A stretch of 61,884 nucleotides of DNA, the filler included, from an uncultured virus (IMG/VR IMGVR_UViG_2061766007_001639) (Duplodnaviria; Heunggongvirae; Uroviricota; Caudoviricetes). It is 10 parts of one record of this genome, joined end to end, with 100 filler letters (N's around TTAATTAATTAA, not from the genome) between each part and the next. Parts side by side here need not be neighbours in the genome. Positions count along the whole stretch, not along the records: positions 9,664 to 35,231 come from IMGVR_UViG_2061766007_001639; 9 more parts are not named here. One strand, given 5' to 3'. The position numbers and the translations under genes were made by a program. This document shows, one piece after another, positions 13,944 through 22,308 of this stretch. The notes beneath the pieces are model-generated. The model saw only the letters and a program-made list of their open reading frames with translations. It was not told where the DNA came from and ran no database searches. Every line of letters begins with the position of its first letter. The first letter of the stretch is position 1.

Positions 13944-14116
13944 TGGGCGGGAACAATCAGAACGACAGGTGACTAGTGCTTCTTTCCCTTTCCGGGTTGG
14001 TGACAGCAGAACAGAACTGAACGACTAGTGACTAATCTTTTTTACCTTTTCCGAGGCGTAGTTGGTACAACAGAACCANNNNNNNNNNNNNNNNNNNNNN
14101 NNNNNNNNNATCCGGG

Positions 14117-14434
14117 ATGGAGGTGCAAGTAATGCCGGTAATGATCCGCGACGTTGATCTCCCATCGACCTGCCAGCAGTGTCCGTGCTTTGGCGTTTCG
14201 TATCTGAGAGATGACGCCAATCACATGTTCGATATCGTGGTGCAGCAGTGCCGGGCACACAGGCAGATAATCAGAATGGCGTATAGCGTGACAGATACAG
14301 ACGAATCGTGGCACAAAACAAAGCGGCCCGAGTGGTGCCCGATGGTATGNNNNNNNNNNNNNNNNGAATGGCAACGAATGCAGCGTATAGTATCTGCTCA
14401 ATCAGAACAGAACAGTAGCGAATGTAATATCTAG
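14117..14434 (+). CDS. Hypothetical Cys-rich phage protein
   Basis: DLPSTCQQCP...RPEWCPM pattern. Confidence 0.5.
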   Translation: MEVQVMPVMIRDVDLPSTCQQCPCFGVSYLRDDANHMFDIVVQQCRAHRQIIRMAYSVTDTDESWHKTKRPEWCPMVXXXXXXEWQRMQRIVSAQSEQNSSECNI

Positions 14435-14492
14435 TGGCGATTTTAGTCAGAACAGGTCAAAACAGTTGAATGAAAGGGTGAAATGTGGTATA

Positions 14493-15139
14493 ATGACCAT
14501 AGATAAAAAAACGTTGATTGCAATGCCGGCCATGTCGATGATGCACACCGCATCAGCAGAGTGCTTCGTCAATATGCGCAAAGGTAATGGCGTTTCGTTC
14601 GGGATCACTCAGAACAGTCTGGTATATGACGCCCGGAACGATTTCGCCTGGAACGCAATCAATCAGGGCTTTGAACGGGTGCTCTGGATTGACAGTGACA
14701 TGACATACGAACGTGACATTCTTGAACGTTTGTATGCTGACATGGACGACGGTGACAAACAGTACGTTTCCGCTCTTGCCTTTACCAGGAAACTGCCAAC
14801 CGCGCCGGTCGTGTACTCAGATCTGACCTNNNNNNNNNNNNNNNNNNNNNNNNNNNNNNNNNNNNNNNNNNNNNNNNNNNNNNNNNNGGTGCCGTCATGA
14901 CCAGCGTTAATCTGCTCAAACAGGTGTGGGATAAATACGGCCCGCCGTTTGACCCTCTACCACATATGGGCGAGGATATCTCGTTCTGCTGGCGCGTTAA
15001 ACAACTGGGCGTACCGATGTGGTGCGACAGCAGAGTTAAGGTCGGGCATATCGGGCAGGTGGAGTTTAATGAGGCGACTTACCTGAACCAACAGAAGCAA
15101 CTCGCAACGACACCAGAAGAGAATCAGAGCGTAACGTAG
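14493..15139 (+). CDS. GT-A fold (GT2-like) glycosyltransferase (gap-split)
   Basis: SLVYDARN, LWIDSD (DxD), GEDISFC, VGHIG. Confidence 0.8.
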
Positions 15140-15539
15140 CAGAACGTCTCTGAACTGCCGCAACATATCAGACCGTCATCAGACCGCCTAGAACGTGCCT
15201 AGAACGCGTTTCAACCGTGAATGCGATAAGAGATACCAATCGCGCCAGAACCGCTCAGAATGCCGTTTAAATGCGTTTGGTGACGTTCAACGCAATTAAC
15301 GGGAATCCAGACCGCTAGAATCCGTTTTTAGCGTGGGTACGTATAAAGTATCGCCTAGACCGCTACAAACGATTCTAGCCCTCTCAACCCGCACAAGAAG
15401 TCTATGTCGGGAACAAACCAGAGTGATGCATCCAGACGTGACGTCTGCAATCAGAACAAACCGGAGCAACACGTCCGGAACGTAACGTCTCAAACCAGAA
15501 CGTTCCCGCTCTGATCGATGTGAAATGGAGCTGACAATA

Positions 15540-16091
15540 ATGCCAAGATCGAAAAAGCAATCCGCAGAATTGACCGTCCAGTCACCAGAAGAACAGGTCG
15601 TATCCGCGGTAAAGGAAAAACGCCATCGCAATCGTCCCGATCTCGCTAAGTTCGGTTACGAAAATGCTGAACCGGGAGATAACGCCCGTTACCTCAGGAT
15701 GGCTAGAGTCTCNNNNNNNNNNNNNNNNNNNNNNNNNNNNNNNNNNNAGTACTTTGATTTCTGCGAACATAACGACAGAAAGCCTAACATGGTTGGTATG
15801 GCTAACTGGATTGGTATCGATAGAGATACGCTCACATTGTGGAAGAAAGGCGACTACCGAAGCGGAACACACTTCGGAATGATAAAAAAGTATATCGACT
15901 TACTGGAAGAAATGTGGATAGATTACATGCAGAACGGTAAAGTCAATCCTGCAAGTGGGATCTTCCTCGGGAAAAATCTGTTTTCGTACAAAGATACACA
16001 AGACGTTATCCTCACACCTAACAACCCACTAGATAACATGTCCGACGATGAAAGCAGAAAACGTCTAACAGAAGCAATACCAGAAGAATAG
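15540..16091 (+). CDS. terS: Terminase small subunit (DNA-packaging gp3-like)
   Basis: YFDFC...GMANWIGIDRDTL HTH and GIFLGKNLFSYKD C-terminal motif; lies upstream of terL. Confidence 0.7.
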   Translation: MPRSKKQSAELTVQSPEEQVVSAVKEKRHRNRPDLAKFGYENAEPGDNARYLRMARVXXXXXXXXXXXXXYFDFCEHNDRKPNMVGMANWIGIDRDTLTLWKKGDYRSGTHFGMIKKYIDLLEEMWIDYMQNGKVNPASGIFLGKNLFSYKDTQDVILTPNNPLDNMSDDESRKRLTEAIPEE

Positions 16092-16098
16092 CAAACAA

Positions 16099-16129
16099 GC
16101 GCGCCTGCGAATATGTAGGTGCGCTTTTA
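16099..16129 (+). terminator. Rho-independent terminator after terS
   Basis: GCGCGCCTGC-loop-GTAGGTGCGC followed by TTTT. Confidence 0.6.
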
Positions 16130-16587
16130 CTGTACCAGTGTAGATTATATACTATGCATATCTAATCTAATCTAATCAGATCAGAACGAATAGAATATAT
16201 TAGTACAGTTACTACAGTAAATAATAATAATATATTTCGTGACGCGTCAGGTTGCTTTTGAGTGTTAGAGACTGTGCTGTACACATTGGCTAGGCACCAG
16301 AGCGGACTGCCTTTACCAGGGGCGCGGAGAAGGGCGGCGCTGGGACTAGCTGTATGGATCGGGGCAGGACGTGACGGAACGGGGTAGCGGGTCACCCCTC
16401 GGAAAAGGTAATACAGGGCTGGCCAGATCTGATCCGCTCTGTTTTTCTGCTAACGGCGCTCCGTTTCCCAACGGGCGCACCAGAACGGCCCTGGTGGCAC
16501 CAGAACGGGCAGATGATAGCAGAACGACGAGAATACGGTCGGCAGAACAGACGATTCTAGGGGCGTTTACGGGCGTTTCGGAACGGG

Positions 16588-16619
16588 CAAAAGAAAACCG
16601 CCCCAGAAAGGGCGGTATC
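16588..16619 (-). terminator. Rho-independent terminator closing the minus-strand operon
   Basis: Minus strand ACCGCCC-TTTCTG-GGGCGGT then TTTCTTTT. Confidence 0.8.
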
Positions 16620-16631
16620 GTTGGTTAATCA

Positions 16632-16892
16632 TCAGGCGTCGATGTGGTACGCGCCGTCATCGTTGCGCGTGAAATAGGTAGTCCCATCTGTGGAGGTCAG
16701 CAGACTTTCGATATCGCTGGCATCGTTGATCATATCCAGCGTCCAGCCGTTGCCATAGATTGTGTCGCCGTCTGAAAATTCGTCGGTAGTATCATGCAAC
16801 AGAACGCCGTCTTGAACGGTGGTTTCGTCGGCGTAGGTGAAGCGGATGGCGGTGATCTCAATGTCGCGACCGTTGTAGTTAATGGTTTTCAT
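16632..16892 (-). CDS. Acidic hypothetical protein
   Basis: GAGGAGGG RBS; 86 aa, Asp/Thr-rich. Confidence 0.7.
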   Translation of the reverse strand: MKTINYNGRDIEITAIRFTYADETTVQDGVLLHDTTDEFSDGDTIYGNGWTLDMINDASDIESLLTSTDGTTYFTRNDDGAYHIDA

Positions 16893-16923
16893 TGTGTTTC
16901 CCTCCTCTTTCTGTGTCGTTTGT

Positions 16924-16952
16924 AGTATAGCATTTTGTGCGGATCAGGTCAA
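16924..16952 (-). promoter_or_regulatory. Sigma-A promoter with extended -10
   Basis: Minus strand TTGACC-17 nt-TATACT with TG two bases upstream of -10. Confidence 0.7.
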
Positions 16953-17219
16953 GCAGAACCTGCTGCTCTTGCTGGTTACGGTGTATTTCGCTGCCACATC
17001 AGGGAGGGCGGCTTTCAGGGCTTTGGTGTCGATGCGGCTGGACTCGATCACCTTCCACGATGCTTTCCAGCCGGTGCCGGTCAAGGTCTCTTCGCCCCTA
17101 GTCGCCATCTCCATTTTCAGTTCGTCCTTGATTGCTTCGGCCTCTGCTGTCATGCTCTCAATCTCGATCTGCAGCGCCTTCAGAATGCTTACCTTCTGGT
17201 CTAAATCCTTGATGCTCAT
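16944..17219 (-). CDS. Hypothetical phage coiled-coil protein
   Basis: GAGGAGG RBS; SSRIDTKALK...SSRF pattern. Confidence 0.7.
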   Translation of the reverse strand: MSIKDLDQKVSILKALQIEIESMTAEAEAIKDELKMEMATRGEETLTGTGWKASWKVIESSRIDTKALKAALPDVAAKYTVTSKSSRFCLT

Positions 17220-17270
17220 GGTGTAACCTCCTCTTTATCGTTGAATCAGAACGGGTTAATCAGAACGGTG

Positions 17271-17663
17271 TCAAGCGTACCAGGAAACATAGCAGCGTTT
17301 GGAGTCGCCCTTGCAGAGTGTCGCGTCGGCGTAACTACTGAGCTTGAACGCGGGGCATCCGTTGTTCTTCAGGCGCTTGACGTCACCGTGTTCTTGATCC
17401 CGAACAAACAGACTGTAATCTGCAGCGGGTAGGATGTCATGGGGCAGGGCGTAGGTGTAATTTGCGGCCATGGGTCCGGTTGCCTCTTCCTTGATGATGG
17501 GGGGCAGGATCTCGCGGACTCTGACGGACGACTCGCCCACCAGGGCGACCACCTGGAAGAAGTCAACGTTGGTCTGGTCATATCCCCAGGATGAGCAGAA
17601 GATATCGCCAACGCGGACGCCGTACTTGTTAATGCGGGTGATGTTTGTTTCGTTGTTCTTCAT
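17271..17663 (-). CDS. Conserved hypothetical protein of mobile elements
   Basis: GGGAGG RBS; VGDIFCSSWGYDQTNVDFFQV motif. Confidence 0.75.
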   Translation of the reverse strand: MKNNETNITRINKYGVRVGDIFCSSWGYDQTNVDFFQVVALVGESSVRVREILPPIIKEEATGPMAANYTYALPHDILPAADYSLFVRDQEHGDVKRLKNNGCPAFKLSSYADATLCKGDSKRCYVSWYA

Positions 17664-17695
17664 GGTTTGTAACCTCCCTTTGCTTTGTCGTTTTG

Positions 17696-17758
17696 CGGCT
17701 TCCTACGACGCCCTGTCGGGCGTTTCGGCCCGGTGCCGCCGGGCCATCATCAGGTAGG
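17696..17758 (-). ncRNA. Type I hammerhead ribozyme
   Basis: Minus strand CCUAC-CUGAUGA-U-GGCCCGG(CGGCA)CCGGGCC-GAAA-CGCCC(GACA)GGGCG-UC/GUAGG-AA-GCCG; three perfect stems and intact core. Confidence 0.9.
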
Positions 17759-17762
17759 GTTA

Positions 17763-17918
17763 TCAGAGCATCGCCGCCAGGATCGGCAGCAGAACCAACA
17801 GCAGAACCAGGGCGATCCCTGCTGCGATCTCCGGTAGCAGAACGCGGATCGTCAGCAGAACGTGCCGCAGATCGCTCATCAGAACAGCAGAACGTGAGGC
17901 TTTATAGTTGCGTACCAT
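17763..17918 (-). CDS. Small single-TM protein (51 aa; not in ORF track)
   Basis: GGAGG RBS; MVRNYKASR...IAAGIALVLLLVLLPILAAML. Confidence 0.5.
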   Translation of the reverse strand: MVRNYKASRSAVLMSDLRHVLLTIRVLLPEIAAGIALVLLLVLLPILAAML

Positions 17919-17932
17919 CAGAAGCACCTCCA

Positions 17933-18664
17933 TTATGCGACGCGTTGCCAGTATTGGATAATCGTCCTGTATTGATCATCAGAGTACCGGGGCAACTTCC
18001 ACAGGTCCATGTGCCCGCCGCGCATGTAGTAGGCATACGCCACACCAGCTTCGCGGGGTTCCGGGAACAACTCACATCCGGCCTGGTTTATAATGTTCCT
18101 GCTGTGCTGTGCTGTCGCCGTCCGCAAGCCCACAATGCCGGTAAAGTTGACTTTAATCTCTGTCGGGATCACTGTCGCCAATGGGCATTGGGTACCGGCG
18201 ATAACGTGCACATTCAACGCGCGGCCGATTTGGCATATCCTTTGCAGGATGGGCTTTGCCGTCTTTTTCATGGTTAGCATGATTTCGGCCATTTCATCAA
18301 TGAAGATGTAGATGTGTCCGCCGTCATACTGTGCTAGCTCTCGGCGTTGCAAATCACGCTTCCGCCTGTCGATGATCGCTAGGGCCATGTTCAGCGCGTC
18401 CGTGATTTCGTCGTTTTCGCACGCATATTTCAGCGTGTGGGGCAGGCGCTTATACTTTCCAAACTCGGTGAATTTTGGATCGATGAAGATAAACTGGACT
18501 TTATCCGGGCACTCATGAAGCAGATTGTAGATTATCGAATTCATGGCGCAGGATTTGCCGGAGCCAACTTCACCGGCGATTAGTAGATTGTGCTGGCGGG
18601 CCATGTCGGCGTATAGGCTGTACACCTGGCCACGCGGGGCTGTTACTTTACGTCTAAAAAGCAT
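17933..18664 (-). CDS. Stand-alone FtsK/SpoIIIE-family ATPase domain
   Basis: LLIAGEVGSGKS, FIDPK, IFIDE, GRALNVHVIAGTQ. Confidence 0.85.
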   Translation of the reverse strand: MLFRRKVTAPRGQVYSLYADMARQHNLLIAGEVGSGKSCAMNSIIYNLLHECPDKVQFIFIDPKFTEFGKYKRLPHTLKYACENDEITDALNMALAIIDRRKRDLQRRELAQYDGGHIYIFIDEMAEIMLTMKKTAKPILQRICQIGRALNVHVIAGTQCPLATVIPTEIKVNFTGIVGLRTATAQHSRNIINQAGCELFPEPREAGVAYAYYMRGGHMDLWKLPRYSDDQYRTIIQYWQRVA

Positions 18665-18680
18665 TTGATATCACCCCCAA

Positions 18681-18827
18681 TTAATGCGTGCAAGGCGCGA
18701 CGCTGGAAACAATCATGACTCCGTCATCGTCTTCAATCCATCCATTGACGCGTGCGGCAATTTTCAGCGCCGCTATAAAGCTGGCATGCATTGCCCAAAA
18801 ACCATTGGCGTTGCGGATCGTAAACAT
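18681..18827 (-). CDS. Small hypothetical protein (48 aa; not in ORF track)
   Basis: GGAGG RBS; MFTIRNANGFWAMH... Confidence 0.5.
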   Translation of the reverse strand: MFTIRNANGFWAMHASFIAALKIAARVNGWIEDDDGVMIVSSVAPCTH

Positions 18828-18871
18828 GTTAAAACCTCCGATTTTTTGTCGTCTCTGTCGCTGTCGGCTTG

Positions 18872-19069
18872 TTACGCGTTTATTATGTCGTGATACGTGC
18901 CGATCATTTCTATTTTAATCCCTGCGTCCCTGGCCGCGTCCCTGGCTGCGTCAATTGTGGGATAGCGTCGGCCGTCGTATGGCGTTGTGCCCCATGGAAC
19001 AAGTTTCACAATGCCGCAGAACGTCTTTTTTCCGTCGCCGGTTACCATGATCGCATAGCGTTTTTCCAT
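18872..19069 (-). CDS. Small hypothetical protein
   Basis: AGGAGG RBS; 65 aa. Confidence 0.65.
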   Translation of the reverse strand: MEKRYAIMVTGDGKKTFCGIVKLVPWGTTPYDGRRYPTIDAARDAARDAGIKIEMIGTYHDIINA

Positions 19070-19097
19070 TGCTATTTCCTCCTGTTTCGTTGTTGTT

Positions 19098-19161
19098 GGC
19101 TTGCCTTCATCAGATAACAGGTTGCCGTCCTGCTATGACGGGCCTTGCGGCCCGTTTCGGC
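19098..19161 (-). ncRNA. Type II hammerhead ribozyme
   Basis: Minus strand GCC-GAAA-CGGGCC(GCAA)GGCCCG-UC/AUAGCAGG(ACGGCAA)CCUGUUAU-CUGAUGA-A-GGC-AA-GCC. Confidence 0.88.
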
Positions 19162-19163
19162 TT

Positions 19164-19904
19164 TTAATCGTCCTGTGCTTCAATGAGTGCCTTTAATTCT
19201 TCAAATCGGGCGTCCTGTTCTGCCTTGTATGCTGTGCTGTGTTCAATGAAGAGAACAAATTGTGCTGTCGCGCAATGTTTGCAATTTTCGCAATGCTGAT
19301 TTTTGTCAATGCCACAACGACAAATCCAAACTTTTGCGTCCATTGCCTTGAGTTTGTTATACGCGTTGATGATATAATCGCAATGACCAAAATTATATCC
19401 AATGCCGTCAATAATGGATTTGACAATGTTTCCGTTGGCTGTATCATCGAATAGCGTTTCATACTTCGCTATTTTTGTGTACGTCCAGAAAAGGAATGAC
19501 GGATTTTCTACAACGACTCTATGCCATGTATTGGCGTATTCTTCTGGATTATTCACATTGAAATCGCCGGAAGCATGTATTCTTATTTCCCCGCTTCCGA
19601 TTATTTCAAGCTGTGCGGAAATTGCATTGTAGAAAAATTCGATATCATCATTTACGATTGACATATTCAATTCAAGGGATCGTTTGACACTTGCCATGTT
19701 ATAAAAACCTGTCTGTGCATAGCAGCCCTTGCAATCGCAAATGCATGTTCCCTTTGTTCCGGCCGGCATGCTCCATGTATAAACGCGCTTGCCTGTTTTG
19801 CTATTGCCTTCCTTGAGTAATTCGGCAATCCAATTGCCATGATAAAGGATTTTCCCTGCCTTGTATTCAATGCCATGGAGCTTGTAAACTTCCTTCGCTG
19901 TCAT
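19164..19904 (-). CDS. GP88-family (radical-SAM-like, Cys-rich) protein
   Basis: GNSK, TCxxxCxxCYA, IRIHASGDF, FWTYTK and C-terminal CxxCxxC. Confidence 0.75.
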   Translation of the reverse strand: MTAKEVYKLHGIEYKAGKILYHGNWIAELLKEGNSKTGKRVYTWSMPAGTKGTCICDCKGCYAQTGFYNMASVKRSLELNMSIVNDDIEFFYNAISAQLEIIGSGEIRIHASGDFNVNNPEEYANTWHRVVVENPSFLFWTYTKIAKYETLFDDTANGNIVKSIIDGIGYNFGHCDYIINAYNKLKAMDAKVWICRCGIDKNQHCENCKHCATAQFVLFIEHSTAYKAEQDARFEELKALIEAQDD

Positions 19905-19960
19905 TGCGTCCGCCTTCCTTCCTTTTGTCGTCTGTTTTGTTCCTTCCTTATTACGTGAAT

Positions 19961-19989
19961 AGTATATCATGATTGCGCGTAAATGTCAA
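19961..19989 (-). promoter_or_regulatory. Strong sigma-A promoter of the minus-strand operon
   Basis: Minus strand TTGACA-17 nt-TATACT with extended -10 TG. Confidence 0.85.
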
Positions 19990-20060
19990 TAGCAAATTCA
20001 AGATTGCACGTAATTTTCTTTGATCATTCCTGACTTTTAATCGCTTCGCTGTCGTTTTTC

Positions 20061-20158
20061 CTGCTGGCCTTGCTTCCGGGCGTGACGATGCTTCCGGGCG
20101 CGTGCTGGCCTGCTGGCCTTGCTTCCGGGCGTGACGATGCTTCCGGGCGCGTGCTGGC
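20061..20158. repeat. Perfect 49-bp tandem duplication
   Basis: CTGCTGGCCTTGCTTCCGGGCGTGACGATGCTTCCGGGCGCGTGCTGGC x2. Confidence 0.9.
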
Positions 20159-20361
20159 AAGGCCTGCCCGGATCGGATCGGCAGGAAAAACGCGTCCCCC
20201 GCGGGGAAATAGGCGAAGACGGGGAGGGGGTGATGGAGTCCCGCTACCACCCGCCAAAAATAAAAAGCAAATTTTCTTNNNNNNNNNNNNNNNNNNNNNN
20301 NNNNNNNNNNNNNNNNNNNNCGTAATGGTGGTAATATGTATCACGAAGGGAGGGATTGACG

Positions 20362-21152: not shown

Positions 21153-22308
21153 ATGAAGAAGGTCAACGAGATGATCACGAAGGTACTGAACACGGAAGAT
21201 GGCAAGTGCGTGGATGTATTCGCGTATGTAGAAGACGAGAAGTACGGAGAGGTAACGCTCGGTTACGAACTGAATGGAAAGGACGAAGTGATTACGATGT
21301 GCTACGGGCGCATTAACACTGAGGATCCTGGCGATGTGCCGTCGAAGGAGTTTGCGAACAGGGCGGAGGCTGCTGGGTCGGAATATGGCGAGGCGTTCGG
21401 CGAGATGTTTGCTGTTGCGGAGAAGGAAGCCGCANNNNNNNNNNNNNGTTTGGAAATCGCCCGCAAAATCAAAAAGGCCAAACCCGGAAAGGGAAAAACA
21501 CCTACAAGGAGTGTATGAGCAATGAAAAGGGTTGTAGTGATATTGCTGATCGTGGCGGTTCTTNNNNNNNNNNNNNNNNNNNNNNNNNNNNNNNNNNNNN
21601 NNNNNNNNNNNNNNNNNNNNNNNNNNNNNNNNNNNNNNNNNNNNGGATAGACATGTTTACAGACGATTATTCTGAACTGATCTACAGGTACTTAAAGCTA
21701 TACTTGGCTGCGGACAATGTGAAAACGATTGAAATGATCAAGGAAGTGCGGAACCAAGGCAAGGAACTACCGGAAATGGACGACAGGATAGAAATGGAAT
21801 ACTATCTTGAATCGTGCGTAGATAACTATTGGCTTGGATATGTTGGTGGTGAAATGACGAAAAAGGATTATCTGGATTGGATNNNNNNNNNNNNNNNNNN
21901 NNNNNNNNNNNNNNNNNNNNNNNNNNNNNNNNNNNNNNNNNNNNNNNNNNNNNNNNNNNNNNNNNNNNNNNNNNNNNNNNNNNNNNNNNNNNNNNNNNNN
22001 NNNNNNNNNNNNNNNNNNNNNNNNNNNNNNNNNNNNNNNNNNNNNNNNNNNNNNNNNNNNNNNNNNNNNNNNNNNNNNNNNNNNNNNNNNNNNNNNNNNN
22101 NNNNATAACAATTGACGGATTGCATGTAACGTGTATGCTTGATGATGTCGATGATGTTATAGTTGGCACGGGCGGCAAATTCGCATATGTGTTTTTGAAC
22201 GGAGAATCNNNNNNNNNNNNNNNNNNNNNNNNNNNNNNNNNNNNNGAGTTGTATGACGGTGAAAGGATCATACTTGATATAATGCGTGCAGAGTTTGTTC
22301 GCGTGTAA
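21153..22308 (+). other. Two or three hypothetical genes (gapped)
   Basis: RBS plus ORFs 21153-21518 and fragments to 22308. Confidence 0.5.

Follow-up and report, generated by a model that had tools for sequence, protein, structure and literature searches.

Gene content of the locus

We analysed a stretch of 61,884 nt (hereafter the window) from an uncultured Caudoviricetes virus (IMGVR_UViG_2061766007_001639), and all coordinates are positions in this stretch. The locus is a minus-strand unit of about 3.4 kb, surrounded by phage gene families, which contains a GP88-family gene, a type II hammerhead, three genes, a type I hammerhead, three further genes and a terminator-like hairpin (Table 1). 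The pair of ribozymes brackets three genes beside a serine recombinase gene, and the predicted cuts of the two hammerheads are 1430 nt apart (19136 to 17707). The promoter-like site at 19989-19961 overlaps the start of the longest ORF of the GP88 gene. The 65-codon ORF that follows the type II element had no family match, and none of the 605 pattern matches obtained for it in viral contigs was confirmed as a relative. A blastn search with 16600-20000 against 50,697 phage records gave no match.

Some other features of the region were recorded. Runs of N at 20282-20319, 21560-21650, 21880-22110 and elsewhere interrupt several ORFs near the recombinase gene, and gene calls are incomplete there. 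A 49-nt unit is perfectly duplicated in tandem at 20060-20158 (2.0 copies, 100% match), in the interval from the recombinase gene to the promoter-like site of the gene row. An unverified ORF of 56 codons (17933-17763) would end 4 nt upstream of the type I hammerhead.

Table 1. Features of the hammerhead locus. Positions refer to the window; minus-strand features with coordinates run from high to low positions, except for the whole type II element.
Feature	Position	Strand	Evidence
Serine recombinase gene, divergent	at 20356		PF00239, E = 6.8e-26
Promoter-like TTGACA-17-TATACT, TG before the -10	19989-19961	-	consensus match only, 11/12 bases
GP88-family gene, 268 codons as longest ORF, start uncertain	19970-19164	-	Pfam PF17338, E = 5e-15
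TAA stop of the GP88-family gene	19166-19164	-	sequence, ORF list
AA spacer between stop and stem II	19163-19162	-	sequence
Complete type II hammerhead, stem II open, stems I and III closed	19098..19161	-	sequence, MFE fold, RF02276 match
Stem II 5' strand GCC, pairs with GGC 19105-19103 (3 bp)	19161-19159	-	sequence and fold
GAAA	19158-19155	-	sequence
Stem III hairpin: A19155-U19138 (15.1-16.1) and six G/C pairs	19155-19138	-	sequence, fold, covariation
GCAA loop of stem III	19148-19145	-	sequence
GUC triplet; predicted scission C19137/A19136	19139-19137	-	hammerhead consensus position
Stem-loop I, 8 bp: AUAGCAGG 19136-19129 with CCUGUUAU 19121-19114	19136-19114	-	sequence, fold, covariation
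Loop of stem I, ACGGCAA	19128-19122	-	sequence
Core CUGAUGA	19113-19107	-	sequence
One extra A before G10.1	19106	-	sequence
Stem II 3' strand GGC	19105-19103	-	sequence
3' tail AAGCC; GCC 19100-19098 pairs with GGC 19126-19124 of loop I	19102-19098	-	sequence
AGGAGG	19083-19078	-	sequence
65-codon ORF, ATG 19069, first gene of the predicted downstream product	19069-18872	-	ORF list
48-codon ORF, between the 65-codon ORF and the FtsK-like gene		-	ORF list
FtsK/SpoIIIE-like ATPase, last gene between the ribozymes	18664-17933	-	PF01580, E = 3.5e-24; phrog_1358, E = 1.5e-44
Type I hammerhead	17758-17697	-	sequence, MFE fold
Three more ORFs after the type I hammerhead, one with RecE-like C-terminal similarity		-	family search
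Terminator-like hairpin and U run, end of the gene row	16616-16597	-	sequence/fold

Structure and class of the type II hammerhead

The minus strand from 19161 to 19098, read 5' to 3', carries a complete type II hammerhead of 64 nt. The order of its parts on the RNA (5' strand of stem II, GAAA, hairpin III, GUC, hairpin I, CUGAUGA, 3' strand of stem II) gives the type II topology. All core bases of the hammerhead are present, C3 U4 G5 A6 N7 G8 A9 in CUGAUGA (19113-19107) and G12 A13 A14 in GAA (19158-19156), and they align to the Rfam consensus. The A15.1-U16.1 pair (A19155-U19138) and the NUH triplet (GUC) are both found. We looked for standard pairs next to the core in the three helices, a criterion taken from the methods of PMC3088659. 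Pair 1.1-2.1 is A19136-U19114, a standard pair next to the core, and G19105-C19159 makes a standard 10.1-11.1 pair only if A19106 is taken as inserted; without the insertion an A faces a C. Folded at minimum free energy, 19170-19090 takes precisely this three-way junction form (-26 kcal/mol, z = -3.0); none of 200 shuffles folds as stably. Cleavage at the consensus position would give fragments of 25 nt (19161-19137) and 39 nt (19136-19098). In all its sequence features, 19161-19098 is a genuine hammerhead.

The preliminary description of this DNA had placed a type II hammerhead at 19098..19161, two nucleotides after the GP88 stop codon, and the sequence, the junction fold and the PF17338 match of the upstream gene (E = 5e-15) bear this out. 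The extra base that it reported after CUGAUGA is A19106, the CGGCA that it assigned to loop I lies in the loop ACGGCAA (19128-19122), and the 3-bp stem II said to adjoin the stop is formed by GCC (19161-19159) and GGC (19105-19103), with AA between stop and stem. The GUC given as the cleavage triplet (19139-19137) is in the sequence at the hammerhead consensus position of the predicted cut. The proposed pairing of CGGCA with the 3' AAGCC holds in part: GGC (19126-19124) and GCC (19100-19098) are complementary and covary in relatives, whereas the rest of the two motifs is not complementary. Loop I and the 3' tail can therefore form a pseudoknot of 3 bp (GGC:GCC).

The same description saw a design shared with a "first ribozyme". 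This is the type I hammerhead at 17758-17697, and it indeed has an extra base (U), CGGCA in loop II and an AAGCC tail. It consists of stem I (CCUAC/GUAGG), CUGAUGA with the extra U, a 7-bp stem II closed by loop II, GAAAC, stem III, GUC (17709-17707) and the tail. Its minimum free energy fold is a three-way junction. No Rfam hammerhead model reported it in a search of a 300-nt stretch, even at E ≤ 10.

The Rfam model Hammerhead_II (RF02276) aligns end to end with the type II element, with a score of 35.0 bits (E = 4e-5 for the 1.1 kb searched, E = 0.0023 for the whole window). This is 2 bits under the gathering score of 37, and the element is absent from the matches at the gathering threshold. 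The shortfall arises because two bases are scored as an insertion after CUGAUGA and the tail is shifted by one base. Hence, we file the element in this ribozyme class by its features, and not as a match at the Rfam threshold. Other Rfam matches in the window at E ≤ 1 (snoRNA-like and tmRNA 3' end-like) were below their cut-offs and unrelated to the ribozyme. The window has 12 copies of CTGATGA, where 7.6 are expected, and only two of them, that of the 19161-19098 element and the one at 17753-17747, are accompanied by the rest of the motif. A covariance model built from 35 sequences of the same design, the window element included, scores this element at 82.7 bits; run over the window with filters off, it detected no other type II copy, and the second-best match had 11.2 bits.

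Relatives of the design and covariation

We searched for the same design with a pattern that fixed stem II, the core and the AAGCC tail, required one free base after CUGAUGA, and left stems I and III free. The pattern matched 68 stretches of viral contigs and 30 stretches of representative genomes. The genome matches were mostly from Lachnospiraceae and other Clostridia of gut samples, but also from Proteobacteria, Actinobacteria, Bacteroidota and one Dehalococcoidia. Two of the 31 genome contexts (L192 and L216) lack proper stems and are probably chance matches.

The base inserted after CUGAUGA, which the pattern required to be present, is mostly U (61 of the 70 pattern matches, against A in 8 and G in 1), and the window element carries the minority form A. 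The plus-strand hammerhead of chrysanthemum chlorotic mottle viroid reportedly tolerates an extra residue between A9 and G10.1, and U at this position is said to have given a faster ribozyme. That hammerhead is reportedly of type III with loop-loop contacts, and not an element of a phage mRNA. The majority base of the pattern matches (U, 61/70) is the one reported as the faster form in the viroid; the window has A.

Compensatory changes in the relatives lend strong support to the predicted helices of the type II element, i.e., stems I and III and the pseudoknot. In the alignment of 35 distinct sequences, 93.1% of the cells form standard pairs, against 72.3% in shuffles, and 158 cells are changed on both sides, against 56 in shuffles; both values were reached in 0 of 500 shuffles. 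Pairing falls to 25-40% when the 3' partners are slid by 1-3 columns. Changes on both sides occur in four of the six pairs of stem III and in seven of the eight pairs of stem I. Stem II and the three pairs of the pseudoknot were held fixed by the search pattern and are hence invariant in this alignment.

For the pseudoknot we rescanned with a free tail, which gave at least 116 stretches, and took the flanks of 80 loci. Loop I and the tail change together, e.g., UGACC/GGUCA, UGGUC/GACCA, GCCC/GGGC and UCGCC/GGCGA. Within the subclass of the window, GGC:GCC is replaced by GAC:GUC (loci L123 and L162) and by AGC:GCU (L117). Over at least 142 distinct combinations, the longest Watson-Crick duplex between loop I and tail has a mean length of 4.27, compared with 3.03 (sd 0.08) when tails are shuffled, and none of 200 tail shuffles reached 4.27. 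Among these combinations (at least 142), the pseudoknot has three pairs in 27, two in 4 and more in 111, which puts the three pairs of the window at the low end. A fourth pair (column 40 with column 70) can be drawn in 27 of the 35 relatives; the window lacks it, with C and A at these positions. We gave this pair little weight: of the 13 relatives with C in the loop, only seven have the G (counted by hand).

In many unrelated loci, a conserved stretch of about 40 nt lies directly 3' of the tail, with the pattern GAGAG(A/C)C..UCAG.G.AU.GUG.GAAA.AUGGCGGCG (L006, L009, L014, L023, L026, L030, L032, L035, L038, L041, L046, L057, L059, L061, L190, L196, L198, L199, L205, L215 and L217). It is absent from the window, and is either a conserved gene start or a second RNA element.

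Four RNA runs hold parts of 17500-19500, as contigs only, which carry no information on RNA ends or on transcription. In the run with the largest share, labelled as a bovine gut metatranscriptome, the pieces cover 18973-19124, 18781-18987 and 17757-17977. Contigs at the predicted cut come from one study only and none of them spans 19137/19136, which is uninformative for cutting either way. In a contig of run X4, single bases are missing at both 19144 and 19149, which together make up one base pair of stem III. One X4 contig carries two substitutions relative to the window (RNA sense), A for G at 19125 in loop I and U for G at 19130 in stem I; the partners of these two positions are out of view, since differences near contig ends are not listed.

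Placement relative to the upstream stop codon

The type II element begins 2 nt after the TAA of the GP88-family gene. We recorded where the upstream stop lies in 164 distinct contexts (from both viral scans and the window), each with 160 nt or more of upstream sequence. An upstream ORF of at least 50 codons ends within 150 nt of the element in 157 of these contexts; the other seven have none. The stop ends between -1 and +6 nt from the first base of stem II in 124 of the 157 contexts, including 35 at -1, where a UAG shares its G with stem II, and 36 at 0 (71 together). In the remaining 33 contexts it lies 9-131 nt away. The peptides encoded upstream are diverse: they form 119 unrelated clusters (blastp, E ≤ 1e-3), of which 93 have the tight placement and 26 do not (gaps of 9-131 nt), and the GP88 peptide of the window clusters with no other. 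The genome set shows the same tendency, with 20 of the 26 contexts that have an upstream ORF being tight. The base preceding stem II is A in 135 of the 164 contexts. The flush placement at the upstream stop is therefore general and not peculiar to the window locus. That the design adjoins the upstream stop in about four fifths of unrelated contexts can be used beyond this locus, and so can the plain hairpin that relatives of the upstream gene have in the same slot (see below).

As a rough guide, we compared these distances with 197 ribozyme-free junctions on the same 64 locus strands, whose median gap was 39 nt (quartiles 4/39/137); ORFs were called crudely (at least 60 codons), so that small genes are missed and the downstream median of 111 nt is inflated. 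The 3' side of the element is tight too: in many loci a Shine-Dalgarno sequence and a start codon follow the tail at 14-35 nt. The stop codon is not mentioned in the main text of PMC3088659, PMC8782182 or PMC6765202, and a search of full-text literature for hammerheads together with stop codons or translation termination in phages returned nothing relevant.

Probable cleavage of a polycistronic message

We think it likely that the type II hammerhead is active and that its self-cleavage divides a polycistronic message between genes. We infer this because the core is intact, the RNA is predicted to fold into the junction, RF02276 matches it, the design recurs with covariation, and the published context of such elements is the same. 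The phage-type minus-strand unit of about 3.4 kb would be co-transcribed and carry both hammerheads. The transcribed RNA would adopt the three-way junction, in which the 3-bp loop I/3' tail pseudoknot keeps stems I and II parallel, and would cut itself after C19137. The GP88 message would then end 27 nt past its intact stop codon, in the G/C-rich hairpin of stem III with a 2',3'-cyclic phosphate, and the next message would start with a 5'-OH, flush with hairpin I and 67 nt upstream of the ATG at 19069. If the type I copy cuts as well, one transcript could give rise to three messages, each having a stability and a translation of its own.

The GP88 gene itself offers a comparison. Four relatives of it were found in viral contigs, with 53-68% identity. 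None of the four has a hammerhead, either in Rfam searches at E ≤ 1, with our own model with filters off, or by eye, and the element is therefore not conserved with the GP88 gene. They have instead stable hairpins starting 1-14 nt past the stop (z of -2.3 to -5.5), which fits a role of the ribozyme in making a hairpin-capped 3' end. Going by bacterial mRNA decay in general, such ends would be expected to stabilise the message. The ribozyme may provide the upstream message with such an end, as a terminator hairpin does, without ending transcription. It would perhaps be an alternative to a plain hairpin in the same slot, one that lets the downstream genes live on.

Elements of this kind, i.e., intergenic hammerheads of phages, are already well described, and the one in the window is not in itself new. 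The main text of Perreault 2011 (PMC3088659) describes natural type II hammerheads in which loop I forms a pseudoknot with the 3' tail, reports pseudoknots for each of the three topologies, and gives stems II as short as two pairs. It places hammerheads near integrase genes, several of them flanking single genes or short blocks in prophages, reports cleavage in vitro, and in vivo for one triple, and proposes that long phage transcripts are processed into gene-length mRNAs. The window locus fits this picture, as given in that text, point by point. The type II element has the pseudoknot between loop I and tail and lies between genes of a phage-type row near a recombinase, and a second hammerhead (type I, with a pseudoknot between loop II and tail) flanks the gene block. 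The locus is a further clear case of two ribozymes enclosing a gene block beside a recombinase gene.

The window element differs from RF02276 and from the hammerheads of PMC3088659 by the extra nucleotide between A9 and G10.1. Its stem II is GCC/GGC, whereas the RF02276 consensus has two pairs, and its pseudoknot has three pairs, whereas most have four or more according to the main text of PMC3088659. In the construct described there, reducing the pseudoknot's six pairs to four lowered the rate about 20-fold, and further shortening more than 100-fold. The window copy may hence be slow at low Mg, because its pseudoknot has three pairs and shortening slowed the Perreault construct. The three-pair pseudoknot, the minority form A of the extra base and the RF02276 score 2 bits under the cut-off speak against our reading, as does the absence of hammerheads from the four GP88 relatives.

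For three type II hammerheads from Desulfovibrio vulgaris, the main text of the cyPhyRNA-seq study (PMC8782182) reports cleavage both in vivo and in vitro. They belong to the same class and lie among phage-like genes, and their fragments (29-32 nt for the 5' and 39 nt for the 3' product) resemble those predicted here (25 and 39 nt). The organisms are different, and activity was measured in Desulfovibrio, whereas it is predicted for the window element. A review of 2019 (PMC6765202) calls the roles of bacterial hammerheads largely elusive in its main text, and gives the processing of polycistronic transcripts as a suggestion. It also describes a discontinuous hammerhead in the 3' UTR of mammalian Clec2 mRNAs, which resembles the window element, as far as that account goes, in having its cleavage site just downstream of the translation stop, such that the reading frame stays intact and the following RNA is detached. 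Unlike the window element, the Clec2 ribozyme is a split eukaryotic one that removes the poly(A) signal, with no downstream cistron.

Alternative readings of the locus

The position at the stop codon might also mean that translation controls the cutting. A ribosome at a stop codon covers roughly the next 9-10 nt, here AA, GCC and GAAA. With GCC and GAAA hidden under a ribosome that is finishing the ORF or sits at its stop, the core could not form, and the RNA would be cut only if the upstream gene is untranslated, or before a first ribosome reaches it. For a 3-bp stem II adjoining the stop this is geometrically reasonable, and if it were true, self-cleavage and the fate of the downstream message would report the translation state of the upstream gene. 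What argues for it is the placement, the stop being flush (-1 to +6 nt) in 124 of the 157 contexts, 93 of 119 clusters and 20 of 26 genome contexts, which is tighter than at the 197 ordinary junctions (median gap of 39 nt, with crude ORF calling). However, the 26 of 119 clusters with gaps of 9-131 nt indicate that the element need not sit flush, the 3' side is tight as well in many loci, and economy of space predicts the same picture. The A before stem II (135/164) is cheaply supplied by a stop ending in A or by the UAG overlap, and tight packing of phage genes, or the need for a 3' hairpin near the stop, explains the placement too. We consider it unlikely that translation gates this ribozyme, and doubtful that the flush placement is a selected functional rule in which ribosome and core compete for the same 8-10 nt.

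The pair of hammerheads could also serve to release the 1430-nt segment between the two cuts (19136 to 17707), with an RtcB-type ligase circularising it or joining its flanks. The ends of hammerhead products (5'-OH and 2',3'-cyclic phosphate) are substrates of such ligases, and the two same-strand ribozymes share a pseudoknot module. The main text of PMC3088659 raises this possibility, but its authors detected no spliced or circular products, and we regard it as very improbable here. The contigs of the RNA runs contained no such joint, although contigs of this kind would be unable to reveal one. The opposite reading, that the element is an inactive relic or a chance look-alike, i.e., a hairpin-rich spacer or weak terminator after the GP88 gene, would account for the RF02276 score under the gathering cut-off, for the minimal pseudoknot and the extra base next to the core, and for the plain hairpins that GP88 relatives have at the same spot. 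It is hardly credible given that every conserved core base is intact, that all three helices and, with A19106 taken as inserted, the pairs adjacent to the core are standard, that 68 viral and 30 genome stretches share the exact design and show compensatory changes, and that the rest of the motif accompanies only 2 of the 12 CTGATGA of the window.

Other repeats and RNA-like elements in the window

The segment 49021-49072 (minus strand) resembles the 3' end of a tRNA or tmRNA and has a T arm, acceptor strand and CCA. Its match to the Rfam tmRNA model (15.6 bits) is far under the cut-off, and ARAGORN found no tRNA or tmRNA gene in the window. It may have been derived from a tRNA as the core of a prophage attachment site.

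The octamer GTTCTGCT, with one mismatch allowed, occurs 88 times in the window, where 36.6 copies (sd 5.8) are expected, and none of 100 shuffles reached 88. They are most frequent on the minus strand, where they occupy short intergenic gaps of the gene row at 13950-17900, with clusters at 17788-17893, 16479-16548, 14005-14076, 14401-14413, 15450-15501 and 17245-17266. The gap that separates the FtsK-like gene from the type I hammerhead contains six or seven of them. After the hairpin of one GP88 relative (L001, 975-1010) there are similar copies, of the form CGTTCTGA. The repeat could be bound by a protein, on DNA or on RNA.
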